From a virus: a DNA stretch of 64,000 bases. Each line of letters starts with the position of its first letter. The stretch's first letter is position 1. Shown one piece after another: positions 32,139 to 53,088 of the stretch. Position numbers and translations under genes: made by a program. The notes below the pieces were generated by a model that was given only the letters and a program-made list of their open reading frames with translations, was not told the DNA's origin and did no database searches. The DNA lies in the UHGV virus genome UHGV-1366603. One strand, written 5' to 3'.

Positions 32139-34856
32139 TTAGAGAGTTTCATCGGTGTTTTCGTCTGTACCGGTATCCGTCTCGTCCGTGCCTTCAGTTG
32201 AAACGTCTTCTTCCGTTGTCGTATCGGTTTCTGTCGTTTCATCATCGGTCATGTCCAAGTCTTCATCACCGCCCAGATCGTCACCACCTAAGTCCTCATC
32301 GCCTCCTAAGCCACCGTCATCTTCAGTGCCGCCACCAAAGTCGCTACCACCGCCGAAGTTATTGGCGTCTTCAGGATTCAGATCGGCTGCTTTTGCTAAC
32401 GTCTGAACTTTACCTGTCGCACGTTTTGCTAACTGAATCAGCGTCTTCGATGCCGCTGCAATTTCATCAGAAATCATCTTGACGTTTTCACCACGTTTAT
32501 CTTCATCGTAGATCAAATCAAACAGATCGGTTTCGATGCCCTGATTACGTAGCCAGTTGCGCGCGTAGAAGGTCTTAACCATCGTCTTGAGGTCATCAGG
32601 TGACATTTCAATACCTTCGTTCTGAAGCATATTAGCAATGTCATCCGTGACCACCAGATCTGCAAGTTTCTCGATAAATTCATAGCGTTTATCGAAGAGA
32701 TCAGCTTGAGATGCTGTTGCAGAAGTATCGGGCGGCGGCAAGGTGACCTTCATACCGTTGATAAACTTCGCCATATACTCTGACGTTTGTTTTGTCATCT
32801 CTTCGCTAGTTACATTCGGATTCTGCTCACGGATATACTCAACGATAATACGGATGAGTTCTGCTTGCAGTTTCGGTGAAGCTTGCAGACTGTTTGTAAC
32901 GTAGCGCGTAAGCGGGGTTGAGAGAATTTCCTGTTTCTTCACAATCTGTTGAGTAACCAACAGCGATTTAGAATAAATCTGAGAAGCAAACTCCAGGTTC
33001 TCCGGGGTAAGTACAAGGTCAGGATCAACACACGCGATGTGACATGTACGGCGTAACAGGTTCTCGTCGATTTGTTGATCAGGAACTTTATACTCCGGCG
33101 TGGTATCAGACACAGACACTTTGTGGCTGGCGTAGTAATCGTTACCCGTTACGTTAAAGGCAATCCCCGCATTAGCCCCCATTGACCAGGCGTCGTTGAT
33201 ATCGCCCCACATCGGCAGACGTCGATTGTAGGAGTTAAGGATATCTGATTTAACTTGGTCAACGGTTTTCTGACCGTTTGCATCATCTGGTGACAGCTCA
33301 ATGTCATACTGCATGTGACGTGCCGAGTTCAGTACAGATGAGTTCATCGTTGCGAACAGCAGCGCCATCCTGACAGTAGAGATAATAAAGGAGCGTTCAG
33401 TAATAGAAACCCCGATACCGTCCTCGTTAAAGTCCGTTGCAAAATAGCATAGGTTATTAACCGGAATGTAAACCACCTGAGTATGACGTTTTGCGAGATG
33501 ACGCGCCAACAGAATACGACCGAATGTTTCGGTAATATTCATGCTGATTTCTGCGCCACCTAGTGCCTGACTTAATGCGCGAGCAAATTCGTTTTCAGCG
33601 ATTTCACCACAACGTGCACTTAAACGGTTGGCGATTTCCGGGGTAATACGAGAAGTGTTCCCTAAGCCCAGATTAGAACGGTTAATGATGCTGTCCGTCA
33701 TCCCGTCGTTATTCAGGTAGTTCATAAAGTTCGCATCGCCGTACAGCGAGGAGCGAGCATTGATGAAGTTACCCATGTCATCTACGATGGTCAGATAACC
33801 AATAGGGTTACGAACGTCATCGCCAATTACCAGTGGCAGCGTTGACTCTGCGGGCAGTAAACGTTCGATGTATTCGATTTTGTTATTCTCATCCATTGAG
33901 ATAATAGGAATATCACCGTACGTTTGTGTTTTCGGTGTTGACTTATACGCCTCGTTTAAATCGCCCAAGTTAATGAACCCTTTTTCAGCAGCGTCACGCT
34001 GACGGTCATCGAAAGATTGGTTAGGGTCGAACGGACTGCCACCGTTTGGTGTAGACGGCTTTTCATATGCGGCTTGCTCTAATTGCCCGTACAATCCCGT
34101 ACGTGCGTTCTCATGCGCGATACGACGATACAAATCCGGCAGCATGGTAATGCGTGGGTTATCGGTAATCGTGATTTCCATCTGGAATTTATCCGAGAAC
34201 ATCGAATCATGCTTACCGAAATCGATTTTCAACGTTTGAGGACCAGTAACGGCTCCGTGTAAACGGTTGAGAATTGATTCTACACCAACTCGCTGCCCTT
34301 CTTTCGGCGCATTAATAGGCCCGAGAATACCAAGCTGTTGTTCGAAGAACGCCGTTTGAGAACGACGAACAGATTCAGTAGCGACCTTTGTATTCAGGCC
34401 GAATAATTGGTCGAAGCCGGTATCCGAGATTATCATCACTGGACTTGCGCCTTTGGTTTTTAACGCATCGTAAATCCACTGATATAATTTCTTAGGTAGC
34501 TGACGAATGTTATCGTGATAATCACGGGTCGGTGTCAGTAGCGCGTTACGCAGATCAATGGGGATGTCCGCGATGTTGTCGTAAATCAACGTCGTGTTGA
34601 TTAAGTCTTTTGTTGATAGCAGGCTCGAAGTTGCAATAGTAACGATTGTTTCGAGTTCAGGTAACGCATCAAAGATACGTTCCGCATTTTTGATAGTACG
34701 AATACGTGAACTCGCAATTGCCGTGAGTTCTTGACGTGTTGGCGTAGAACCACCCTCGCTACGCGTACCGCGTTGTTGCTGAGGTGCTGGGCCCGTAGTT
34801 TTACGAAGAATTGCAGCTACGGCGGGGTCGCCCGTTAATTTACTAATATCGTCCAT
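32139..34856 (-). CDS. large protein (905 aa) with Gly/Asp/Glu/Thr-rich acidic C-terminal tail; candidate portal or other head protein
   Basis: Long minus ORF; C-terminus GGGSDFGGGTEDDGGLGGDEDLGGDDLGGDEDL…TDETDTGTDENTDETL; GGAG RBS. Confidence 0.8.
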   Translation of the reverse strand: MDDISKLTGDPAVAAILRKTTGPAPQQQRGTRSEGGSTPTRQELTAIASSRIRTIKNAERIFDALPELETIVTIATSSLLSTKDLINTTLIYDNIADIPIDLRNALLTPTRDYHDNIRQLPKKLYQWIYDALKTKGASPVMIISDTGFDQLFGLNTKVATESVRRSQTAFFEQQLGILGPINAPKEGQRVGVESILNRLHGAVTGPQTLKIDFGKHDSMFSDKFQMEITITDNPRITMLPDLYRRIAHENARTGLYGQLEQAAYEKPSTPNGGSPFDPNQSFDDRQRDAAEKGFINLGDLNEAYKSTPKTQTYGDIPIISMDENNKIEYIERLLPAESTLPLVIGDDVRNPIGYLTIVDDMGNFINARSSLYGDANFMNYLNNDGMTDSIINRSNLGLGNTSRITPEIANRLSARCGEIAENEFARALSQALGGAEISMNITETFGRILLARHLAKRHTQVVYIPVNNLCYFATDFNEDGIGVSITERSFIISTVRMALLFATMNSSVLNSARHMQYDIELSPDDANGQKTVDQVKSDILNSYNRRLPMWGDINDAWSMGANAGIAFNVTGNDYYASHKVSVSDTTPEYKVPDQQIDENLLRRTCHIACVDPDLVLTPENLEFASQIYSKSLLVTQQIVKKQEILSTPLTRYVTNSLQASPKLQAELIRIIVEYIREQNPNVTSEEMTKQTSEYMAKFINGMKVTLPPPDTSATASQADLFDKRYEFIEKLADLVVTDDIANMLQNEGIEMSPDDLKTMVKTFYARNWLRNQGIETDLFDLIYDEDKRGENVKMISDEIAAASKTLIQLAKRATGKVQTLAKAADLNPEDANNFGGGSDFGGGTEDDGGLGGDEDLGGDDLGGDEDLDMTDDETTETDTTTEEDVSTEGTDETDTGTDENTDETL

Positions 34857-34867
34857 TGGGGTCTCCG

Positions 34868-37051
34868 ATGCAGAGATTTAACATATTTCGTGAACAGAAC
34901 ATCGCGTTGGCGAAATCACTGATTATTAAATCAGAATCAATCGCACAACAGATGAATCTGGCAATAACCGAGAACGGCGGTTTCGTTTCCGATAACCGAA
35001 GTACGTGGCGATACTACCTGCATTTAGCAGGACAACGTCACGAATGGGATAAGCCCATTTACATAACGTCGCTCGACACGCAAGAGCAGATAGAATTAAC
35101 GACAGCCAACCTGTCCCGTCATAAAAAGACCTCAAACGTATTTCGTTCGAACGGCGAGTACATTGAGGAGCTGATCAGAACGTATCCTGACTACGCGATT
35201 TATATCCGAGGTGTGTTTAATCCGGTGGATATAAACTACGCCATCCGTGTGGCCGACTGCTCTATCCTCTATTACGACAGTTCATTAGTGGAGTCGCAAG
35301 AGACGTCGCTGATGTCGAGATTGGAAGACAGAATAAGGGCAGCTCATGTTCGCTATATGTCAGAAGGGTGGAAAGTTCACAACGATGCGTTCGTGTTAGC
35401 GTTCTACTGTATTCTGTATCCGCAGCTACCCGGCATTATTGGTTACATCCGTTCTTCTTTACAGCATACCACGGAAACGCATTCGTTTTACGTGACAGAG
35501 TTCTTAGCATCACACCAAGAACTTCACGAGTTTATGCCTTATCTGACCCAGAAACAGAAATTCATTCTGTATCGGAATATTCGTTACTGGGAGCGTAACT
35601 CAGGGAAAGAGGAGATTTTCGACTGGCAGATTGATGCGCTACTGACAGGTTGGGGGATGCCTGCGGTTGGGTATAATGTTGCGCAACAGATACACGAACC
35701 GAAGGATGATGACGATTCCACGTTAACACCGTTACCGATTGGTTATCAGCAATCGCTTAACTATACGGAAAAGGATTCTGGTCGAGACCTTGACATTGTA
35801 ACGACGACGGACATTATCCAGAAGGAAGTCGCGTTAGCGTACAATAACCCGGCGTACGAACCGGAGTATCAGGAAGACTTAGATACCCGTTTAAGTTTAA
35901 CGCAATACCCTAACCTGAAAACCAAACTCATTGAAGTTACAGCAGTCGACCCAGAGGCGATTGAGCGCTTCGAGTATCTGCATAACCTCTTTAACGAATG
36001 GGTACATCTCGTCGCGAAAGGGAAATACAACATTTACCACGAGATTCTTAACCCAACAAACGGGGATACCTTAAAGCTTAGCTCAAAAGAGTTATTGGCG
36101 CTGTTCTTGTACGCGGCGTATAAAGGGTATTCTGACGTTGCGTTAGAAGAGATTCCTGTGTTCAACGTATTCGGGGTGTTAATCAAACGCTGGGTTCCAT
36201 TCGACGAAATGGAACAACATTTAATCCCGAGCTGGGAAAACCGTTTCGATGCGTTGATTAACTATTATACCGATACGCACACAGAAGTCGTCGGAACGAT
36301 TCTCAGTGCTGACGAACTCTACGACACGGTTAATGAAATCATTACCCAGAAACGTCGTCGTTGGCGTTATAGCCAAAACCGTCGGAAGATTCCTGACCGC
36401 GCTGCGGGCTTGATGCTGTTTAACTACCATTATCGTGATTATCGTTGCGATTTAAAACTGAACTACCGTAACTACGATGAGTTCTTTAAAACGTTTGGGT
36501 TAGATTATACGTTGGTTTCTGCGGAGACGTGGCAAGACATTGCTATTGACGCGTTTAACACCGCAACTAACCTCGAAACCCGCGCAACGATTTCACAGTC
36601 TGAGATTCAGCGTGCGATGGTACGACTGATGACGAAGCTGTCATCCTACACCGTACATTTTGCTGCACGAATGGGGTCAGATTCTTACGACGTTATGGAC
36701 CCGCTCTGTCCTATCTTAGGGGATATCCCTATGAGTGGGGAGGGGTCGGTTACCATTATTGAACCCCTCTTAGGCGTACAGCAAGTTACGCGTCACCAGT
36801 ATATGTCCACCGACACTGTGTTACCGGCAGCGCCTGTTATTAAAGAACTGTCGATGCCGCAGCACATCAAACTCAGGATGAACATTTACATGGGCATCCG
36901 AGTGAAAGTAACACAGCAGGTTGTGGTGGATATTAACGAGCCGACTACCGGGGTTGTTAAAGTGAAATCTTCGCTTGACGATTGGACGTTAAACGAACAG
37001 GTGAAAATTAACGATCTGGACGGCTTCACGCTTGACCAGCTACCTAAGTGA
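34868..37051 (+). CDS. hypothetical large protein (727 aa)
   Basis: Start set at ATG 34868 (track uses TTG 34856); diverges 11 bp from 905-aa gene start. Confidence 0.8.
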   Translation: MQRFNIFREQNIALAKSLIIKSESIAQQMNLAITENGGFVSDNRSTWRYYLHLAGQRHEWDKPIYITSLDTQEQIELTTANLSRHKKTSNVFRSNGEYIEELIRTYPDYAIYIRGVFNPVDINYAIRVADCSILYYDSSLVESQETSLMSRLEDRIRAAHVRYMSEGWKVHNDAFVLAFYCILYPQLPGIIGYIRSSLQHTTETHSFYVTEFLASHQELHEFMPYLTQKQKFILYRNIRYWERNSGKEEIFDWQIDALLTGWGMPAVGYNVAQQIHEPKDDDDSTLTPLPIGYQQSLNYTEKDSGRDLDIVTTTDIIQKEVALAYNNPAYEPEYQEDLDTRLSLTQYPNLKTKLIEVTAVDPEAIERFEYLHNLFNEWVHLVAKGKYNIYHEILNPTNGDTLKLSSKELLALFLYAAYKGYSDVALEEIPVFNVFGVLIKRWVPFDEMEQHLIPSWENRFDALINYYTDTHTEVVGTILSADELYDTVNEIITQKRRRWRYSQNRRKIPDRAAGLMLFNYHYRDYRCDLKLNYRNYDEFFKTFGLDYTLVSAETWQDIAIDAFNTATNLETRATISQSEIQRAMVRLMTKLSSYTVHFAARMGSDSYDVMDPLCPILGDIPMSGEGSVTIIEPLLGVQQVTRHQYMSTDTVLPAAPVIKELSMPQHIKLRMNIYMGIRVKVTQQVVVDINEPTTGVVKVKSSLDDWTLNEQVKINDLDGFTLDQLPK

Positions 37052-37058
37052 GAAAACC

Positions 37059-37586
37059 ATGGCATATCGCGTCGACTTAACGAAAACTCCGAAACAAATT
37101 CTGGTAGATCGTATTAACTACGTTTTCGGGGTATCCTATACCACTGATAACATCGATTTTAACGATAAAGGTGTGCAGCCACTGACGAAAGACGAAGCCC
37201 GTCGTTACGGACTGGAATCGAAAGTGGCGGCCGACTTTAAAAACGGTGTTACAGGGAACCAGGAATTCATCTTAACCCGTGTTGACCTGGCAACGTTCTT
37301 AGCTGACGAACCGGTTACAGTACCGAAAGGCGAAGTAACCAGCAGCCAAGAACTGGCAGACTATATCGTTGCCCAGACCGGTATTGATTTGACCAAAGAT
37401 GACATTATGATCGAGCCTATCAGTGAGGAACTCGATTCTTATGATGTTCGCTTAGTCCCGAATCACTTATCTTTTAAAGGAACGATTCCGGTCGTATTTA
37501 CTGACCCCACACCACGCACGTTGGCGTCTCTCGTGACGAAACTTGCGCTGGACGGGTTCCGCCCTGGAGAATTAATCAATGTCTAA
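37059..37586 (+). CDS. hypothetical protein (175 aa)
   Basis: Start set at first ATG (track TTG at 37032 overlaps upstream gene). Confidence 0.65.
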   Translation: MAYRVDLTKTPKQILVDRINYVFGVSYTTDNIDFNDKGVQPLTKDEARRYGLESKVAADFKNGVTGNQEFILTRVDLATFLADEPVTVPKGEVTSSQELADYIVAQTGIDLTKDDIMIEPISEELDSYDVRLVPNHLSFKGTIPVVFTDPTPRTLASLVTKLALDGFRPGELINV

Positions 37587-38466
37587 TGTCAAAGTTTACG
37601 ACGGTAAACTCTCGACGGTAACACTTAATGCGATGCGTCTGGCTACCGCATTAATTACCGGTGCCGATGTGCAATACCCACAGAAGTCCACACTGAATGA
37701 GTTTTATAAGCTCATGCAAACCCCAGTGCCGGACGGTAAAGCACGTCCCCATTTGCAGTACATGGCGATTGGTAACCGTGGCCACATGGTCGACACATCA
37801 GACGTTGTTGCTGATGTTGTTCCTGTAGCTAAAGAACCTATCGCGTCCGGGATGTTTTCACGCGTTCCGTTTGTCCTGCGTACTAAAGACAACGATTTGT
37901 CTGATGAACAGCGTAAGAACTACGCTTTCCGTACTCTGGAAACCATCAACAAACGTGAGTATTGGGCGTACTACTTAAAACGCATTGACATGCGTGCAGT
38001 AAAAACTACCGACTACGACATTAAGCGTGAGAACGGTGTTGAAACTGTAGAAGACTTTGTCTATACGGATACTGAACTGAACCCGGTACCGAAAGTGTTA
38101 CCGGACTACGATTACGACGATGACGGTACCGTTGCAATTCCTGACGGCCGTTATGTGGAATCAGGCGCAGACCTGGTTATTCCGTGGACGGACTTTGACG
38201 TTCAGGAGTACATGAACGTGACCAGCATTATGCGCGGTAGCCCTCGTAGTTCGATTATCTCTGAACTGGCACTGTGCTCTGGTTTAGACCAAGTAACGTC
38301 TGGTGACTCTGCCACAGGTTCGAAGTTCAGCTACACTGAAGCTATCGGTGTACAAGCCCTGTATTACATTTCGATGTTTACTAACCTGGCGCAGACGAAC
38401 GATAAACTGTCACTGACAATCCGTATCGGTCAACCTGCACCGTTCTTCTTAGGGACAGCGAATTAA
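37579..38466 (+). CDS. hypothetical protein (295 aa)
   Basis: GGAGA RBS, 8-nt overlap with upstream gene. Confidence 0.8.
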   Translation: MSNVKVYDGKLSTVTLNAMRLATALITGADVQYPQKSTLNEFYKLMQTPVPDGKARPHLQYMAIGNRGHMVDTSDVVADVVPVAKEPIASGMFSRVPFVLRTKDNDLSDEQRKNYAFRTLETINKREYWAYYLKRIDMRAVKTTDYDIKRENGVETVEDFVYTDTELNPVPKVLPDYDYDDDGTVAIPDGRYVESGADLVIPWTDFDVQEYMNVTSIMRGSPRSSIISELALCSGLDQVTSGDSATGSKFSYTEAIGVQALYYISMFTNLAQTNDKLSLTIRIGQPAPFFLGTAN

Positions 38467-39110
38467 TGTTGATTCCTGAGCCGAGACTTCCCGATAAAAT
38501 GGTCAGGATCGCGGCGATAGACCCCGGTACGAGCCATCTCGGGATGGCGGTGCTGGATTGGGAATATGGCAGCGACCAAGCCGAAGTGGTGTGGGCTGAT
38601 ACCATGCACGTATTAGACCCAACACATCCAAGTGCGTTTGCAGAGTGTGTCGGTAAACGCGACGATCGCTTAGTAAAACTCGAAGCGTGCTACCGTGAGT
38701 TTCTTCGGATTGCGCGTCCGACGTTTGTTGCAACAGAAACGCCGTTTATGCGGCGGGCAAAACTCTCCGCGTATGAGTCTGGCGTAGAGTTACAGCTGAT
38801 GTTAAGACGGGCGTTATGGGACGTGTTTCCAGAGAAAGTCTTACACGGGTTCAATCCGATTATTGTAAAATCATTCGTTGGTGTGGAAGCGAAAGGAACG
38901 GACAAAACAGATATGTTTCGTGCCGTAACGAAGTTGTATCGCGACCACGCGTTGTTTGACATTACAACGTTGGATGAGCACAGTATCGATGCCGTGGCGG
39001 TGGGGAATATCTTTGTCAGGGTAAACCTGTTAAACTTGAATAGTCTCCTACCGCCAAAACAAAAGTCTGCTAAGACAGCAAAACGGCGGAGAAGACGTCG
39101 GAGGAAATAG
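38466..39110 (+). CDS. putative RuvC-like Holliday-junction resolvase/endonuclease with poly-Arg C-terminal tail
   Basis: N-terminal VRIAAIDPGTSHLGMAVLD (RuvC IDPG motif), internal ETPF and DEHSIDAVAVG acidic motifs, C-terminal KRRRRRRRK. Confidence 0.55.
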   Translation: MLIPEPRLPDKMVRIAAIDPGTSHLGMAVLDWEYGSDQAEVVWADTMHVLDPTHPSAFAECVGKRDDRLVKLEACYREFLRIARPTFVATETPFMRRAKLSAYESGVELQLMLRRALWDVFPEKVLHGFNPIIVKSFVGVEAKGTDKTDMFRAVTKLYRDHALFDITTLDEHSIDAVAVGNIFVRVNLLNLNSLLPPKQKSAKTAKRRRRRRRK

Positions 39111-39112
39111 CG

Positions 39113-39691
39113 ATGTCGCAACCAACACAAGACGTGTCAGCCGCAATTCTTGACATTCTTATCCAAGCAGGAAACAGAAAGTTAAGTAAAGAGCAGTCCG
39201 AAGAACTGTCTAAGATTCTCAAAGACAACTTCGGTGACGACGTCTCTGTAGACGTAACGCGGTCGGGTACAAAGATTCTGTCGGAGCTACGCCCAACGCT
39301 TCTTGAGAACATTGGAAAGATGGCGGAAAACTTTCAGCAGCAAGCCACAAACGCTGTAGAGAGTTTAGGTGACGAAGTAAGCAAAGAAACGATGTTGACA
39401 CTGTGGCCAAAACTTGCCGGTGCACAGAAGTTCATTATTGTTCTGCTTGCACTCGCCACTGTGGTCGTGACAGGCTTCTTAGCGTACGACACGCATCAGA
39501 ACTTTCCAAAAGACAGTATGGAAGTGTTATTTGTATCCTTACTTCCGCTGTTCGGATTGGTAGTATTTGCAACGTGGCCAATTAAAACGTTGGCTTACAA
39601 GTCGTTGGAGATTGCTACCAAAGTTGTCGAGAAGAAACTTGAGAAATCAGGTCAGGTCGTCGCGAAGACGGAAACAAAGACAGCGAAATAA
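39113..39691 (+). CDS. membrane protein (192 aa), two predicted TM helices
   Basis: Hydrophobic segments FIIVLLALATVVVTGFLAY and LFVSLLPLFGLVVFATW. Confidence 0.75.
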   Translation: MSQPTQDVSAAILDILIQAGNRKLSKEQSEELSKILKDNFGDDVSVDVTRSGTKILSELRPTLLENIGKMAENFQQQATNAVESLGDEVSKETMLTLWPKLAGAQKFIIVLLALATVVVTGFLAYDTHQNFPKDSMEVLFVSLLPLFGLVVFATWPIKTLAYKSLEIATKVVEKKLEKSGQVVAKTETKTAK

Positions 39692-46379: not shown

Positions 46380-46416
46380 CCCCTACCTATCGGTAGGGGC
46401 GGGTTTCTTTTTTATC
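46380..46416 (+). terminator. intrinsic terminator
   Basis: CCCCTACC-TATCG-GGTAGGGG then T-run. Confidence 0.85.
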
Positions 46417-47141: not shown

Positions 47142-47176
47142 CCCCTACCTTCGGGTAGGGGGTTATTTAATTTTTT
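47142..47176 (+). terminator. intrinsic terminator (UUCG tetraloop)
   Basis: CCCCTACC-TTCG-GGTAGGGG then T-run; same stem as terminator 46380. Confidence 0.85.
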
Positions 47177-47206: not shown

Positions 47207-47252
47207 ACAATAACCTCTTTACGACTTGTTCTACAGATTAGGATTAATTACC

Positions 47253-47612
47253 ATGACTTATAATCACAACTCTATTGTTTTAGCAAAACGTAAATTCGGT
47301 CTTCATCTTTCTTACGTGATTCGTCATTTGACAGCGAAAGACATTACACAGCGTGAACTTGCCCAGCTTGCGAAAGTTTCACAATCGGTTATTTCATCTA
47401 TTAAGAACGATCGTAGCGAACGCCTGAGTCTACCGATAATGATGAAGGTTGCTGATGCAGTTCGTCTGAAATACCAGATTACGTTTAATTCCATTAAAGG
47501 GCGTTGCTCAGTAACGGTTCACGTAGAGTCTGCGTTGGACTACGTTGCAAATACGTCCCTTAAACGTACCGCGAAGAATATTCGTTTTGTTACTAACAGC
47601 GCAACACACTAA
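47253..47612 (+). CDS. helix-turn-helix (XRE/Cro-like) DNA-binding protein (119 aa)
   Basis: HTH-like segment ITQRELAQLAKVSQSVISSIKN; ATG after TTAGGA RBS (track TTG 47226). Confidence 0.6.
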   Translation: MTYNHNSIVLAKRKFGLHLSYVIRHLTAKDITQRELAQLAKVSQSVISSIKNDRSERLSLPIMMKVADAVRLKYQITFNSIKGRCSVTVHVESALDYVANTSLKRTAKNIRFVTNSATH

Positions 47613-48317: not shown

Positions 48318-48330
48318 TTTGTAACAAACA

Positions 48331-48358
48331 GGGAGCTTCGGCTCCCTTTTTCTTTTTA
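48331..48358 (+). terminator. intrinsic terminator (UUCG tetraloop)
   Basis: GGGAGC-TTCG-GCTCCC followed by T-run. Confidence 0.85.
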
Positions 48359-48403: not shown

Positions 48404-49390
48404 ATGGTATATCGTAAAACGATAGAAAGAACCTCTTCTGATTTAACCGTAGGACGCTTAACCCGTAGAGATATTCGCAATCCTCAACTTCAGGCATGTT
48501 TAACGGGCCCTAACGGTGCGGTGATTCGTGAAGCACTGTGCAATACTGAGCTGAATACGTTCTCTTTACAAAAAGGAAAAACAATCCAAGGGTTTATCAT
48601 CACAAAACACATTTACGGTGATCCAACGTTACACTGCTTGTATATGCATGAAATTGTACCTGGGTGTTTGAACAAACTGAGCCTTCTATTGGTACTTGAC
48701 TATACTGGGTTTACGTACCTTAACCGAATTGCCAGGGGCGTGGAAGAAATCGCTGAGCTTAACGATTTAGGGTTTAGACATACCCACACAGCATATCGTT
48801 TAGGTACGCGTAAGCTACTGGATGTCACTTTACCGACGAACGTGAAGAACGTCTCCGGCGACTTCTATAAAGACTTAACCAGAGCACAACGTGAACAGCT
48901 CATGACGTTGTTTGGCACTAGCGTCGTTGAAAACATCAATGCTGACCCTGTAACGCGTTCTCGACAAATAATGCCGCAAGTTGAAACATTGGTGGAATTA
49001 GCGCGGCACGTCAATCACTACACTTACGTTTGGATGGACGGTAATGACGTTGTGGGTGTGGTGCAAGTTAAATCACGCAATCTTAGCGAGTGCGAACTAA
49101 AAGCCATTGCGGTAAGTGAATCACACCGGGGCCGTGGGATTGGGCGTGCGTTGTTGTACCGTGCTTTACAGATTGCTTCGACAACAGCAGCACCGTTAGA
49201 AATAGGCTGTTACAATAACAACCCAGCATTTAGACACCTGGCTGTAGATTTGTTTAAATTCCGTCCCTACGAGTACGAATTTGTTTTAGTGCGCGACGAC
49301 GATGTCGTCAGTTGGGAGCGTCGGAAAAACCGCGTCGAGTTAGTGTTAGGCGACGAAATGTCATCGTTACAAGGCGGAATTAATGCATAA
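48404..49390 (+). CDS. GNAT-domain protein (328 aa), C-terminal acetyltransferase domain, possibly tandem GNAT
   Basis: C-terminal AIAVSESHRGRGIGRALLYRALQ GNAT motif; AAGGAG RBS. Confidence 0.65.
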   Translation: MVYRKTIERTSSDLTVGRLTRRDIRNPQLQACLTGPNGAVIREALCNTELNTFSLQKGKTIQGFIITKHIYGDPTLHCLYMHEIVPGCLNKLSLLLVLDYTGFTYLNRIARGVEEIAELNDLGFRHTHTAYRLGTRKLLDVTLPTNVKNVSGDFYKDLTRAQREQLMTLFGTSVVENINADPVTRSRQIMPQVETLVELARHVNHYTYVWMDGNDVVGVVQVKSRNLSECELKAIAVSESHRGRGIGRALLYRALQIASTTAAPLEIGCYNNNPAFRHLAVDLFKFRPYEYEFVLVRDDDVVSWERRKNRVELVLGDEMSSLQGGINA

Positions 49391-50198
49391 ACCAATTATA
49401 AAGTGGATGGGTGGTAAATCACGGATTATCGACACCTTACTACAAGTCTTACCTGAACGTACAACATTCGTTGAACCGTTTGTTGGTGCAGGGTCGGTGT
49501 TTTTGAACACACGTTATAAACGTTACATTCTTGCTGACTCTAACCCCGATTTAATACAGTTGCTGAATGTGGCGAAAGACCAACCTGAAGAACTTATCTT
49601 AAAGTCGAAACCACTATTCGAAGACGGTAACGATTGTATTAAGTATATGGAACGCCGTGAGTTGTTTAATCGCGAAACGGATATGGCTCCGTTAGACCGG
49701 GCAGCAATGTTTCTGTACTTAATGCGTCACGGTTTTAACGGGATGTGTCGTTACAACGGCAGCGGGGGTTTTAACGTTCCGTTTGGTCGCTATCCTAACG
49801 GTGTGTATTACCCGTTAGACGAGATTCGTGGTTGGGCTAAACGTTGTCAAGAACCGGAATACTTAGAAATTGTTTGTGAAGATTTCCGAACAGTTTTAGA
49901 GCGTACACCGGAAGAGAGTGTGATTTACGCAGACCCGCCTTATATACCGCTCTCAGAGACCGCTAAACACGCCCAATACCATCGGAAGGAGTTTTCCCAG
50001 GCTGACCATCGAGAACTCGCCAGAGCGCTGTTTAAGCAGGTTGAGAGGGGGAATAGCGTTGTGTTGTCCAATGCAGATACGTTACTAACGCGTGAGATTT
50101 ATTACGGGTTCGAATGGCGTTCTGTGGAAGTAGGGCGATACATGGGTGCGTCAGGTGCTGCCCGTAAAACGGTAACGGAATTGTTAGGAGTGCTCTAA
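49383..50198 (+). CDS. dam: DNA adenine methyltransferase (Dam, GATC N6-adenine MTase)
   Basis: IKWMGGKSR, VEPFVGAGSVFLNT, YILADSNPDLI, FNGMCRYNG.GGFNVPFGRY, DPPYIPLS, all matching E. coli Dam from memory. Confidence 0.9.
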   Translation: MHKPIIKWMGGKSRIIDTLLQVLPERTTFVEPFVGAGSVFLNTRYKRYILADSNPDLIQLLNVAKDQPEELILKSKPLFEDGNDCIKYMERRELFNRETDMAPLDRAAMFLYLMRHGFNGMCRYNGSGGFNVPFGRYPNGVYYPLDEIRGWAKRCQEPEYLEIVCEDFRTVLERTPEESVIYADPPYIPLSETAKHAQYHRKEFSQADHRELARALFKQVERGNSVVLSNADTLLTREIYYGFEWRSVEVGRYMGASGAARKTVTELLGVL

Positions 50199-50971
50199 TG
50201 CGTATAGTGGATATCCACGATTATCGTAATGACCATTTAGCGATTGGTGTCGATGGGAAAATGGTTTCGTTAACCCGCGTACGCAAAGGGTTAATGGAAA
50301 AGGAGATCATTCGGGAGTCCGAAGACCCTACCTTTATCATCCTTTCGAACACTAATCAGTTACAGGGCATCTTTTCAGGGCGTGCTGACGGTAAGATTTT
50401 CTATATGTCCGCAATCGTTGTGTTTGCGAAGAAGAACATTAACTTCGCCCAACTCAAACGTTTGTTAAACGTGAAGATGTTTGATGTCACCTACCCTGCT
50501 AATGACCTAAAACGTCGTGATCAGTTAATGACGTTTTTAGGTATGCAACCAACGTCTATCGATTACGACCTTACGATTACTGAGAAGCCGGAAGTGCGCA
50601 CTGACTTACCTGACGTAGACGATGTTGAATCCTTAACGTTAGAAGAGACGTTTACGATTCCTAAGGTTGTTAATGTCAACCTGGACACGCATTGTTTAGG
50701 GTTGTTAGCCGTAGGTGCAGCAGAAGGGTTGTGTTGTCGTAAAGACGGTAAGGTTGAAGGTATCTTAGTCTATTCGAAAATCAACGAAAAGACGTTTGCC
50801 ACTGAAGGCTTTTTCTATAACGATTGCACTTACGGAAACGCACTACTAACCACGTATTTCCGTATTGCTTATCTGAAAGGCGCAACTGTACGCCTCACGT
50901 TTCCATACACAGCCCCACCGTCTATGGGTGGAGTTGAGGTAGAACCATTAACCGGCCACTTTATCTTTTAA
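50198..50971 (+). CDS. hypothetical protein (257 aa)
   Basis: TAATG coupling to Dam. Confidence 0.75.
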   Translation: MRIVDIHDYRNDHLAIGVDGKMVSLTRVRKGLMEKEIIRESEDPTFIILSNTNQLQGIFSGRADGKIFYMSAIVVFAKKNINFAQLKRLLNVKMFDVTYPANDLKRRDQLMTFLGMQPTSIDYDLTITEKPEVRTDLPDVDDVESLTLEETFTIPKVVNVNLDTHCLGLLAVGAAEGLCCRKDGKVEGILVYSKINEKTFATEGFFYNDCTYGNALLTTYFRIAYLKGATVRLTFPYTAPPSMGGVEVEPLTGHFIF

Positions 50972-50980
50972 GGATGATGA

Positions 50981-51208
50981 ATGGAAATCAAACGTATTGT
51001 AACCAAAAACAAACAGATTGTTTACGTCGCAGGCGATAACGAATTCTCGGCGGTAATCAACAGCGAAAATGCGCTCATTATCGGTTATCCGGGTAAAGTT
51101 ATTACGCGCAGTCACCAACGTGTGATTGACAAACTTATCGCAAAAGCGAAAGCGCGTGACGGTGTTGGTTCAGTACAAACCCACACGGGGTTAACGCTGG
51201 CCCTCTAG
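50981..51208 (+). CDS. hypothetical protein (75 aa)
   Basis: ORF with AAGGA RBS. Confidence 0.6.
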   Translation: MEIKRIVTKNKQIVYVAGDNEFSAVINSENALIIGYPGKVITRSHQRVIDKLIAKAKARDGVGSVQTHTGLTLAL

Positions 51209-51247
51209 TCAGCAGGTAATATGACCTCTTAACTGGAGACTTTAATA

Positions 51248-51754
51248 ATGAGTGAGACTCTGGATTTTAATCAGCTCGAACAACACGATTTCGACCTCGG
51301 TGTTCGTGATATCGATGCTGATCATGAAACACGTTGTAAAGAGCTGTTTAACCGTTACGGTCAGCTCATCACCGGTGCCTCTGACGACACCGAATTCAGT
51401 TTAGATGAGTTTGAAAAAGTTCTGTCGTGTTTTATCACTGACTGTCTGGCGAAGAAAGCGTTGCTGGTCGAACTGAACTTAGACTCCGTCGAACCTACTG
51501 ATGCTCACGCCGTGTTGAAAGAGTCCATTATCCCAACTGATGAGATTATGGACACGGTAGCCGGTATTCGCGGTACGTTTGAAACTGCCGTAGAAGAATA
51601 CACGGAACAGCTTCGTGAATCAGGACTGACGTTGTGTGCGCCAGCAGGTGAGCCATTACCGTCCGACGAAGAAACTGAAGAAGCGCGTAGTCGCTTAGCG
51701 CGTTATGTTATTACGTCTATCTTGGTAGATGATCGCGAAGAGAATCTGCTATAA
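51248..51754 (+). CDS. strongly acidic protein (168 aa), candidate DNA mimic
   Basis: GGAGACTT RBS; very high Asp/Glu content. Confidence 0.7.
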   Translation: MSETLDFNQLEQHDFDLGVRDIDADHETRCKELFNRYGQLITGASDDTEFSLDEFEKVLSCFITDCLAKKALLVELNLDSVEPTDAHAVLKESIIPTDEIMDTVAGIRGTFETAVEEYTEQLRESGLTLCAPAGEPLPSDEETEEARSRLARYVITSILVDDREENLL

Positions 51755-51757
51755 GCT

Positions 51758-51797
51758 GCCCCTCTCTCCGTTTGGAGAGAGGGTGTATTTATTTTTA
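51758..51797 (+). terminator. intrinsic terminator
   Basis: GCCCCTCTCTCC-GTTT-GGAGAGAGGG then T-rich tail. Confidence 0.85.
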
Positions 51798-52271: not shown

Positions 52272-52541
52272 ATGGCTAAGATTTACATTGTTGAGAAACG
52301 TGCGGGTAATGTTCTTTCCTATTACGAAGAAGGTAAACCTGAAAAAGTTAAAACACTCAAACTCGACGGGTATGAAGTGAAGAGTTTACGCAAAGGTGTG
52401 AAGATTACCTTTAAAGGTTTGGCTCGCGTAAATAACTTACACATTGTTAAGGCCGATGGTACGATGGCTGCGTTAGCGCCTGTCAGTGCTGCGAAAACGA
52501 CAGCCGGTCGTGGCTGCTACGGTAGCAGTCGTAAGATTTAA
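52272..52541 (+). CDS. small basic protein (89 aa), monocistronic unit
   Basis: TGGAG RBS; promoter-like element before and terminator after. Confidence 0.7.
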   Translation: MAKIYIVEKRAGNVLSYYEEGKPEKVKTLKLDGYEVKSLRKGVKITFKGLARVNNLHIVKADGTMAALAPVSAAKTTAGRGCYGSSRKI

Positions 52542-52546
52542 GCAGT

Positions 52547-52588
52547 GCCCCTCTCTCCTAACGGAGAGAGGGTACTTTTATTTTTCTT
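52547..52588 (+). terminator. intrinsic terminator
   Basis: GCCCCTCTCTCC-TAAC-GGAGAGAGGG then T-rich tail; stem identical to terminator 51758. Confidence 0.85.
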
Positions 52589-52599
52589 CGAGGTGCGTG

Positions 52600-53088
52600 A
52601 TGACAACGGTATTAGTAACAAAGGATTACATTTTAGCTGACCGACTTGTGGACTATGCTGGCACAGTTAAAGAATTGCCCAAACTACATAAACACAAAAA
52701 CAAGTTTGTTTTCTACACTGGGGAACGTGTACTGGACACCGAGTTTTGGAAAATATCAATGACCGCTGTTATAGAAAAATATTTAGACGTGGATAAACGC
52801 AAGGAAGTTGAGCCTTTGCTTGTGGATTTTTTCGAAAAAGAGCGAATATTCGATCAGATTGTCATTTTTACGGCTAGAAAAACTCATTGGCTCACATTAG
52901 TAGCAGGTAAGTTTGAAGATCTTGTAATAAATGAAAATGCGGTTTGGGCAACGGGTTCTGGTGGAGGTTTTGCACGGGCTGCTTGGGCGACAGGAATATC
53001 AGAAAAGAAAATTATGCCGTTGGTAGGTTCTATTGATCCGTCTAGCTCGACCACCTATGACTTGTTTTACAGGAAGAGTTTACGATGA
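52600..53088 (+). CDS. HslV/proteasome-beta-like Ntn-hydrolase peptidase candidate (162 aa)
   Basis: Start set at ATG after GAGGTG RBS (track ORF 52486 runs through the terminator); N-terminus MTT…; ENAVWATGSGGGFARAAWATG resembles HslV [21 protein letters not shown]. Confidence 0.5.
   Translation: MTTVLVTKDYILADRLVDYAGTVKELPKLHKHKNKFVFYTGERVLDTEFWKISMTAVIEKYLDVDKRKEVEPLLVDFFEKERIFDQIVIFTARKTHWLTLVAGKFEDLVINENAVWATGSGGGFARAAWATGISEKKIMPLVGSIDPSSSTTYDLFYRKSLR

Follow-up and report, generated by a model that had tools for sequence, protein, structure and literature searches.

The question raised by this locus is whether a Dam-like gene of an uncultivated human gut virus (UHGV-1366603) encodes a genuine GATC methylase and, if so, what purpose such an enzyme could serve in a phage. 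The gene lies within the 64,000-nucleotide stretch of viral DNA analyzed here (the window) and spans positions 49383–50198 of the plus strand, from an ATG start to a TAA stop. Its 271-aa product was assigned to the orphan alpha-class (D12) N6-adenine DNA methyltransferases on the basis of the open reading frame, matches to Pfam, NCBIfam and PDB entries, and an AlphaFold2 model. The product matches the Pfam family PF02086 (MethyltransfD12) over 249 of 253 profile positions (E-value 1.2e-57, 196 bits, the cut-off being 22 bits) and the NCBIfam model TIGR00571 ‘dam’ with 254 bits (cut-off 115). Its score of 256 bits against NF008152, the strict E. coli Dam equivalog, is under the cut-off of 441, indicating that the window Dam is a family member and not an ortholog of the E. 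coli type. Among solved structures, E. coli Dam (EcoDam, 2g1p) aligns to residues 3–269 with an E-value of 5.6e-64 and 44% identity over the full length, followed by DpnM (5.5e-41) and, distantly, T4 Dam (about 1e-7). These matches are far beyond chance, and the open reading frame is a real, intact gene of a Dam-type DNA adenine methyltransferase; the assignment made in the earlier note for this span is thus upheld by sequence, individual residues and predicted fold.

The AdoMet-binding motif I, EPFVGAG (residues 31–37; 49473–49493, plus strand), was located by alignment to EcoDam and 13 relatives. In its FVGAG part (residues 33–37), F33, G35, and G37 correspond to EcoDam F35, G37, and G39, while E31, P32, and G35 are invariant in an alignment of 44 sequences. 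The acidic residue for the AdoMet ribose is present as D52 (EcoDam D54). The catalytic motif IV, DPPY, for which the earlier note had pointed to a match with E. coli Dam, is indeed found at residues 184–187 (GAC CCG CCT TAT; 49932–49943, plus strand) and is invariant among all aligned relatives. Motif I, the recognition domain and DPPY are colinear with EcoDam, and the C-terminal position of DPPY corresponds to the alpha order.

The target-recognition hairpin comprises residues 118–137 (49734–49793, plus strand) in the alignment. In EcoDam, the first base pair is read by K9 and Y138 and the fourth by R124; Y119 intercalates, N120 is hydrogen-bonded to a base, and L122 and P134 make contact with the neighboring pair (PMC4417163). 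The corresponding hairpin residues of the window Dam are F118 (Y119 in EcoDam), N119 (N120), M121 (L122), R123 (R124), P133 (P134), and Y137 (Y138); the hairpin also holds N125, N131, and R136, and K7 is identical to K9 of EcoDam. In EcoDam numbering, the residues kept are K9, FxGxG, D54, N120, R124, N126, N132, P134, R137, Y138, DPPY, and R249, and the two substitutions, Y119F and L122M, are conservative and both recur in relatives.

The AlphaFold2 model, computed from the 44-sequence alignment with a mean pLDDT of 90.5 and a pTM of 0.89, comprises a Rossmann catalytic domain and a helical DNA-binding domain with a beta-hairpin. EcoDam structures are its best Foldseek matches in the PDB (target-normalized TM 0.91–0.93, rmsd about 2 Å), followed by DpnM, Mcbe1, and T4 Dam. 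The presence of all residues for AdoMet binding, catalysis and GATC reading is well supported by alignment and model, and the retention of the recognition residues in an EcoDam-like predicted fold lends good support to the view that the enzyme is GATC-specific. The solved structures closest to it (EcoDam 2g1p and entries beginning with 4rt, DpnM, and T4 Dam 1yfj) include known GATC methylases. EcoDam shares with the window Dam the motif order, DNA-contact and catalytic residues that are identical or conservatively replaced, and orphan status, but the window enzyme is phage-encoded, falls under the NF008152 cut-off and carries Y119F and L122M. T4 Dam, which shares the Pfam family and the fold, is likewise an orphan GATC methylase encoded by a phage, but with only about 20% identity (E-value 1e-7) and a TM of 0.7–0.8 it represents another branch of the family. 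DpnM (M1.DpnII, PDB 2dpm) is a GATC-specific alpha-class methyltransferase with 30% identity and a TM of 0.80–0.84; unlike the window Dam, near whose gene no endonuclease gene was found, it is part of a restriction-modification system.

The orphan status is evident from the gene neighborhood. The best PADLOC model for the window Dam is oMTase (orphan methyltransferase, 1e-86), the six scanned neighbors of dam gave no PADLOC match to nuclease or defense models, and no nuclease families were found among the neighbors by Pfam or PHROGs. A restriction-modification pair was therefore ruled out, since no neighbor carries a nuclease signature in Pfam, PHROGs or PADLOC, and by these sequence comparisons the window Dam is a solitary methyltransferase without an adjacent cognate endonuclease gene.

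The phiKZ-type major capsid protein encoded in the window (PF25620 PhiKZ_MCP, E-value 1e-207), together with further virion proteins, among them that of the tail tube, and a divergent DnaB helicase, identifies the virus as a jumbo phage. An uncultivated phage of the human gut, it resembles SPN3US and Erskinevirus. Over the 6.8 kb around dam that were compared, the window matches a human gut metagenome contig of 223,427 bp without any difference (ENA ERZ918879 / ERR636350, PRJEB7369). A related phage with the same five-gene dam unit and an 82% identical Dam is present in an assembly labeled Shigella sonnei (GCA_013884755.1, contig AAUULN010000002.1), which points to Shigella or E. coli as the host, and a close relative of the same type was also found in a Logan-assembled run. 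The occurrence of a virulent-type jumbo phage in an isolate assembly points to carry-over of lytic phage during isolate sequencing. The closest relatives of the window phage, with Dam proteins 82–99% identical, come only from metagenomes and the Shigella sonnei-labeled assembly; megablast against the phage collection returned no near-identical DNA to the dam locus, and the window phage represents a lineage separate from the SPN3US-like phages. The nearest cultured phages are the Erwinia phages phiEaH2, Stratton, and Asesino (capsid protein 80%, Dam 71–74% identical), followed by the Salmonella SPN3US group (78 and 67%, respectively), and the hosts of the cultured relatives are Salmonella, Erwinia, E. 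coli, and Proteus. Formation of a phage nucleus has been shown experimentally for SPN3US and Asesino (PMC13282480; PMC11724907). Chimallin (ChmA) was not identified among the scanned open reading frames of the window, which covers 64 of 223 kb. With chimallin being encoded beyond the window, it is from the relatedness of the capsid protein that the window phage is judged to be a probable nucleus-forming phage as well (Chimalliviridae).

The unit upstream of dam is closed by a terminator-like hairpin and its T-run (48330–48357, plus strand), and the transcription unit of dam thus starts downstream of this hairpin. The first gene of this unit (48404–49390, plus strand) encodes a 328-aa protein with a C-terminal GNAT acetyltransferase domain (PF00583, E-value 5e-12; phrog_8663), and its stop codon overlaps the ATG of dam (ATGCATAA). 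The stop codon of dam in turn overlaps the ATG of a gene for a 257-aa protein of phrog_9941 (TAATG; 50198–50971, plus strand). No nuclease signature was seen in this protein; its structure model, built from homologs of about 90% identity only, has a pLDDT of 33. Two further small genes, encoding proteins of 75 aa (phrog_7896) and 168 aa (phrog_8221), occupy 50981–51754 on the plus strand, and another, strong terminator-like hairpin (51760–51783, 10-bp stem with seven G-C pairs) with a T-rich tail extending to 51793 marks the end. The location of these overlapping or adjacent genes between two hairpins suggests a five-gene unit, composed of the GNAT-like gene, dam as its second member, and three small genes.

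A weak relationship between the family of the 257-aa protein and the GNAT-like family emerged from profile comparison (78% probability, E-value 1.8e-5), and dam thus appears, by sequence comparison, to be situated inside an array of distant GNAT-like paralogs. The array consists of GNAT, Dam, and one hypothetical protein in the window (48404–49390 and 50198–50971 flanking dam), of GNAT, Dam, and two hypothetical proteins in SPN3US (35846–39304), and of GNAT1, GNAT2, and a hypothetical protein, without Dam, in CR5 (34110–36712). A Mom-like adenine acyltransferase role was considered for the adjacent GNAT gene and rejected, as only generic GNAT families match it; Mom-type enzymes of jumbo phages are reported in other phage groups, fused to nucleases. 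The wider neighborhood contains genes for thymidylate kinase (PF02223; 46490–47134), an HTH DNA-binding protein (phrog_7126; 47226–47612), and an HslV-like protein of a peptidase family (phrog_1040; 52486–53088), all syntenic with SPN3US-like phages. G+C-rich terminator-like hairpins recur between genes as two near-identical pairs (46380–46399, 47142–47161, 51760–51783, and 52549–52572), with the structures CCCCTACC-N4-GGTAGGGG and CCCTCTCTCC-N4-GGAGAGAGGG, each present twice.

In 52 phage records the capsid protein shares 68% or more identity with that of the window, and every one of these phages also encodes Dam; one further record, SPFM16, appeared in the Dam list only. In all 52, dam follows the genes for thymidylate kinase and the HTH protein and is found about 25 kb downstream from the capsid gene. 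In contrast, no methyltransferase is annotated genome-wide in CR5 of the sister genus Derbicusvirus, and a tblastn search over all 224 kb of its genome was empty; the order at its syntenic site is thymidylate kinase, GNAT1, GNAT2, and a hypothetical protein. EarlPhillipIV, also of Derbicusvirus, likewise contains no Dam within the syntenic 50 kb. The earlier note had placed the gene in an accessory block. The small, poorly conserved neighboring genes and the absence of dam from Derbicusvirus are consistent with this description, whereas its synteny in 52 of 52 database phages of the SPN3US/Erskinevirus/Machinavirus clade is not, and the term applies to dam only insofar as neither the family-wide core nor the sister genus contains it.

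In a neighbor-joining tree, the Dam proteins of jumbo phages form one clade, the subclades of which mirror the genera. Together with the clade-wide synteny, this indicates that dam is a clade-conserved, vertically inherited gene, and it was probably acquired once, in the ancestor of the SPN3US/Erskinevirus lineage. The nearest bacterial homologs in the tree are from metagenome-assembled genomes of Shewanella and Plesiomonas, followed by the prophage-type enzymes of Pectobacterium, Dickeya, and Serratia; tentatively, since the tree has no bootstrap values, the jumbo-phage Dams are closer to prophage-type than to chromosomal Dam. Comparison of the window gene with its 82% identical ortholog yielded a dN of 0.13 and a saturated dS; no dN/dS ratio can thus be given, and the low dN at saturated dS indicates purifying selection. 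The RefSeq starts of Asesino gp121 (36842–37573, 243 aa) and SPN3US gp161 (36875–37669, 264 aa) look to be placed too far downstream. The short forms lack the conserved N-terminal K-W-x-G-G-K carrying the equivalent of EcoDam K9, and the open frame and the tblastn alignment extend further upstream by 29 codons in Asesino gp121 and about 8 codons in SPN3US gp161.

The roles suggested in the earlier note, protection against restriction and modulation of mismatch repair, are plausible for a phage Dam. The analyses above document the family, the fold, the residues for catalysis and target recognition, the missing nuclease partner, conservation across the clade and purifying selection; from these we infer, with a probability of roughly three in four, that the product is an active orphan Dam that methylates the replicating DNA of the phage itself at GATC and thereby protects the progeny. 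The enzyme would use S-adenosylmethionine to methylate N6 of adenine in 5′-GATC-3′, the target base being flipped into the DPPY pocket in the manner of E. coli Dam. The phage DNA would be enclosed in a proteinaceous phage nucleus, as in the cultured SPN3US and Asesino, from which host Dam is probably kept out. If so, the phage Dam would be the only route to GATC-methylated progeny DNA: by acting on the replicating phage DNA it would produce fully GATC-methylated genomes, shielded from MutH and from cleavage of the MboI/DpnII type in Dam-positive enterobacterial hosts. Phage nuclei are known to exclude host restriction enzymes (PMC12908238).

A stronger version of this proposal is that Dam is retained across the PhuZ-less chimallivirus clade and that the phage imports its own Dam since the nucleus shuts out that of the host. 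Full GATC methylation would then carry the progeny through a brief exposed stage in the next Dam-positive host, where MutH or GATC-specific restriction could act, and avoidance of GATC would be an older, parallel solution, which the Dam-less sister genus still displays in full. We regard this version as doubtful, although, if true, it would be the first ‘nuclear’ epigenetic self-mark required by compartmentalized phage replication. A literature search on SPN3US-like Dams, part of which was unspecific, returned no biochemical, methylome, localization, knock-down or virion-proteome data.

The count of GATC sites proposed in the earlier note revealed strong depletion: the window contains 112 sites, whereas a second-order Markov model predicts 278 (O/E 0.40, Poisson P about 1e-29), making GATC its second most depleted tetranucleotide, behind CTAG. 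Methylation is thus not the sole answer of the phage to GATC-directed pressure. Avoidance of GATC by enterobacteriophages has been linked to the action of MutH on under-methylated DNA (PMC5014478, citing McClelland 1984, Deschavanne and Radman 1991). A phage Dam giving full protection should relax this depletion. In syntenic 50-kb segments, O/E was 0.17 and 0.20 in the Dam-less CR5 and EarlPhillipIV and 0.41 in the Dam-encoding SPN3US, while the values of 0.24 in Asesino and 0.27 in Machina, which also encode Dam, run counter to this expectation. Depletion is most pronounced in the two Dam-less phages, and over the complete 224-kb genome of CR5, with its 160 sites, O/E is again 0.17. Compared with CR5, GATC is significantly less scarce in the window and in SPN3US (p about 2e-6). 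For Asesino and Machina the difference from the Dam-less phages is not significant (p = 0.13 and 0.18), and the entire contrast between Dam-encoding and Dam-less phages amounts to one evolutionary event. Relaxation of GATC depletion after Dam acquisition is therefore only partly borne out. In every relative examined, GATC is the first or second most depleted tetranucleotide (O/E 0.17–0.41), and CTAG is also low in these phages (O/E 0.28–0.68).

The persisting depletion is also what would be expected if the phage genome were not reliably methylated, as would be the case if Dam acted mainly on host DNA in the cytoplasm, upsetting mismatch repair, SeqA-dependent replication control or Dam-regulated genes, with the phage genome not being a substrate. 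Consistent with such a role, dam is located among small non-structural genes, next to HTH and GNAT-like proteins of the kind involved in host takeover (for GNAT roles see PMC7824862), and import into the phage nucleus is selective and should not be assumed (PMC12908238). Enterobacteria, however, methylate GATC almost fully. An additional Dam would accordingly have little effect in the hosts of the cultured relatives, and action on host DNA appears unlikely. Alternatively, GATC methylation could be an epigenetic signal for packaging, replication or transcription timing, similar to P1 Dmt, rather than a means of protection. A regulatory function has been suggested for many orphan methyltransferases of phages, and in P1 the GATC sites at pac have to be methylated (PMC12707154). 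The strict conservation of dam, although the nucleus should already shield the DNA, suggests a need beyond anti-restriction, and DNA-modification systems are otherwise rare in Chimalliviridae (PMC13282480). Against this, regulatory GATC clusters were sought across the 64-kb window and not found (six triples within 200 bp versus 5.3 expected, p = 0.44), and GATC is not enriched upstream of window genes (1.47 per kb versus 1.78 per kb in coding sequence); these figures concern 64 of 223 kb, and the genome ends or a pac site may lie elsewhere. A signaling role seems quite improbable.

A different specificity, another substrate or an inactive protein could be argued from Y119F and L122M and from the score below the equivalog cut-off, but the catalytic, AdoMet-binding and base-contacting residues are all kept, the two substituted positions also carry F and M in relatives of the chromosomal type (F, for example, in the Photobacterium enzyme), the gene is under purifying selection, and the predicted fold matches EcoDam at an rmsd of about 2 Å. 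This makes such a deviation extremely unlikely, and protection of the progeny DNA by its own GATC methylation remains the preferred explanation.

The counterparts in SPN3US-like phages (SPN3US gp161, phiEaH2 AFQ96573, Asesino gp121, and those of the SPFM phages) share 65–74% identity with the window Dam, are of equal length and occupy the same position at about 25 kb; phiEaH2 and Asesino, however, lack a 330-aa GNAT-like gene immediately before dam. These orthologs have already been annotated as DNA adenine methylases, with a proposed anti-restriction function (PMC6614189), the Dam genes of jumbo phages have been surveyed (PMC7824862), and nanopore sequencing of other methyltransferase-encoding Erwinia jumbo phages has revealed methylated GATC (PMC11780129). 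The window gene is thus a conventional phage orphan Dam, annotated in all close relatives, and its identification is correct but ordinary. Nucleus-forming phages reportedly seldom carry genes for DNA modification (PMC13282480), and what deserves attention is that Dam is fixed in one whole nucleus-forming clade, which infects Dam-positive enterobacteria, while GATC is still avoided. SPN3US and Asesino provide a tractable system for asking whether the phage nucleus keeps out DNA-modifying enzymes of the host and what pressure is left on GATC.

Two other patterns of site usage were observed. The site of Dcm / EcoRII, CCWGG, is strongly depleted in Machina, CR5, and EarlPhillipIV (O/E 0.23–0.29) and not in the window, SPN3US, and Asesino (O/E 1.0–1.1), a pattern that does not track whether a phage encodes Dam. 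All six phages contain less CATA than expected (O/E 0.42–0.53), with a milder deficit of TATG (0.67–0.72), and on the sense strand of the window genes TATG outnumbers CATA about threefold (2.6 versus 0.9 per kb). TATG is a late-promoter element of the phiKZ-type non-virion RNA polymerase, and the scarcity of CATA might reflect avoidance of antisense promoters.
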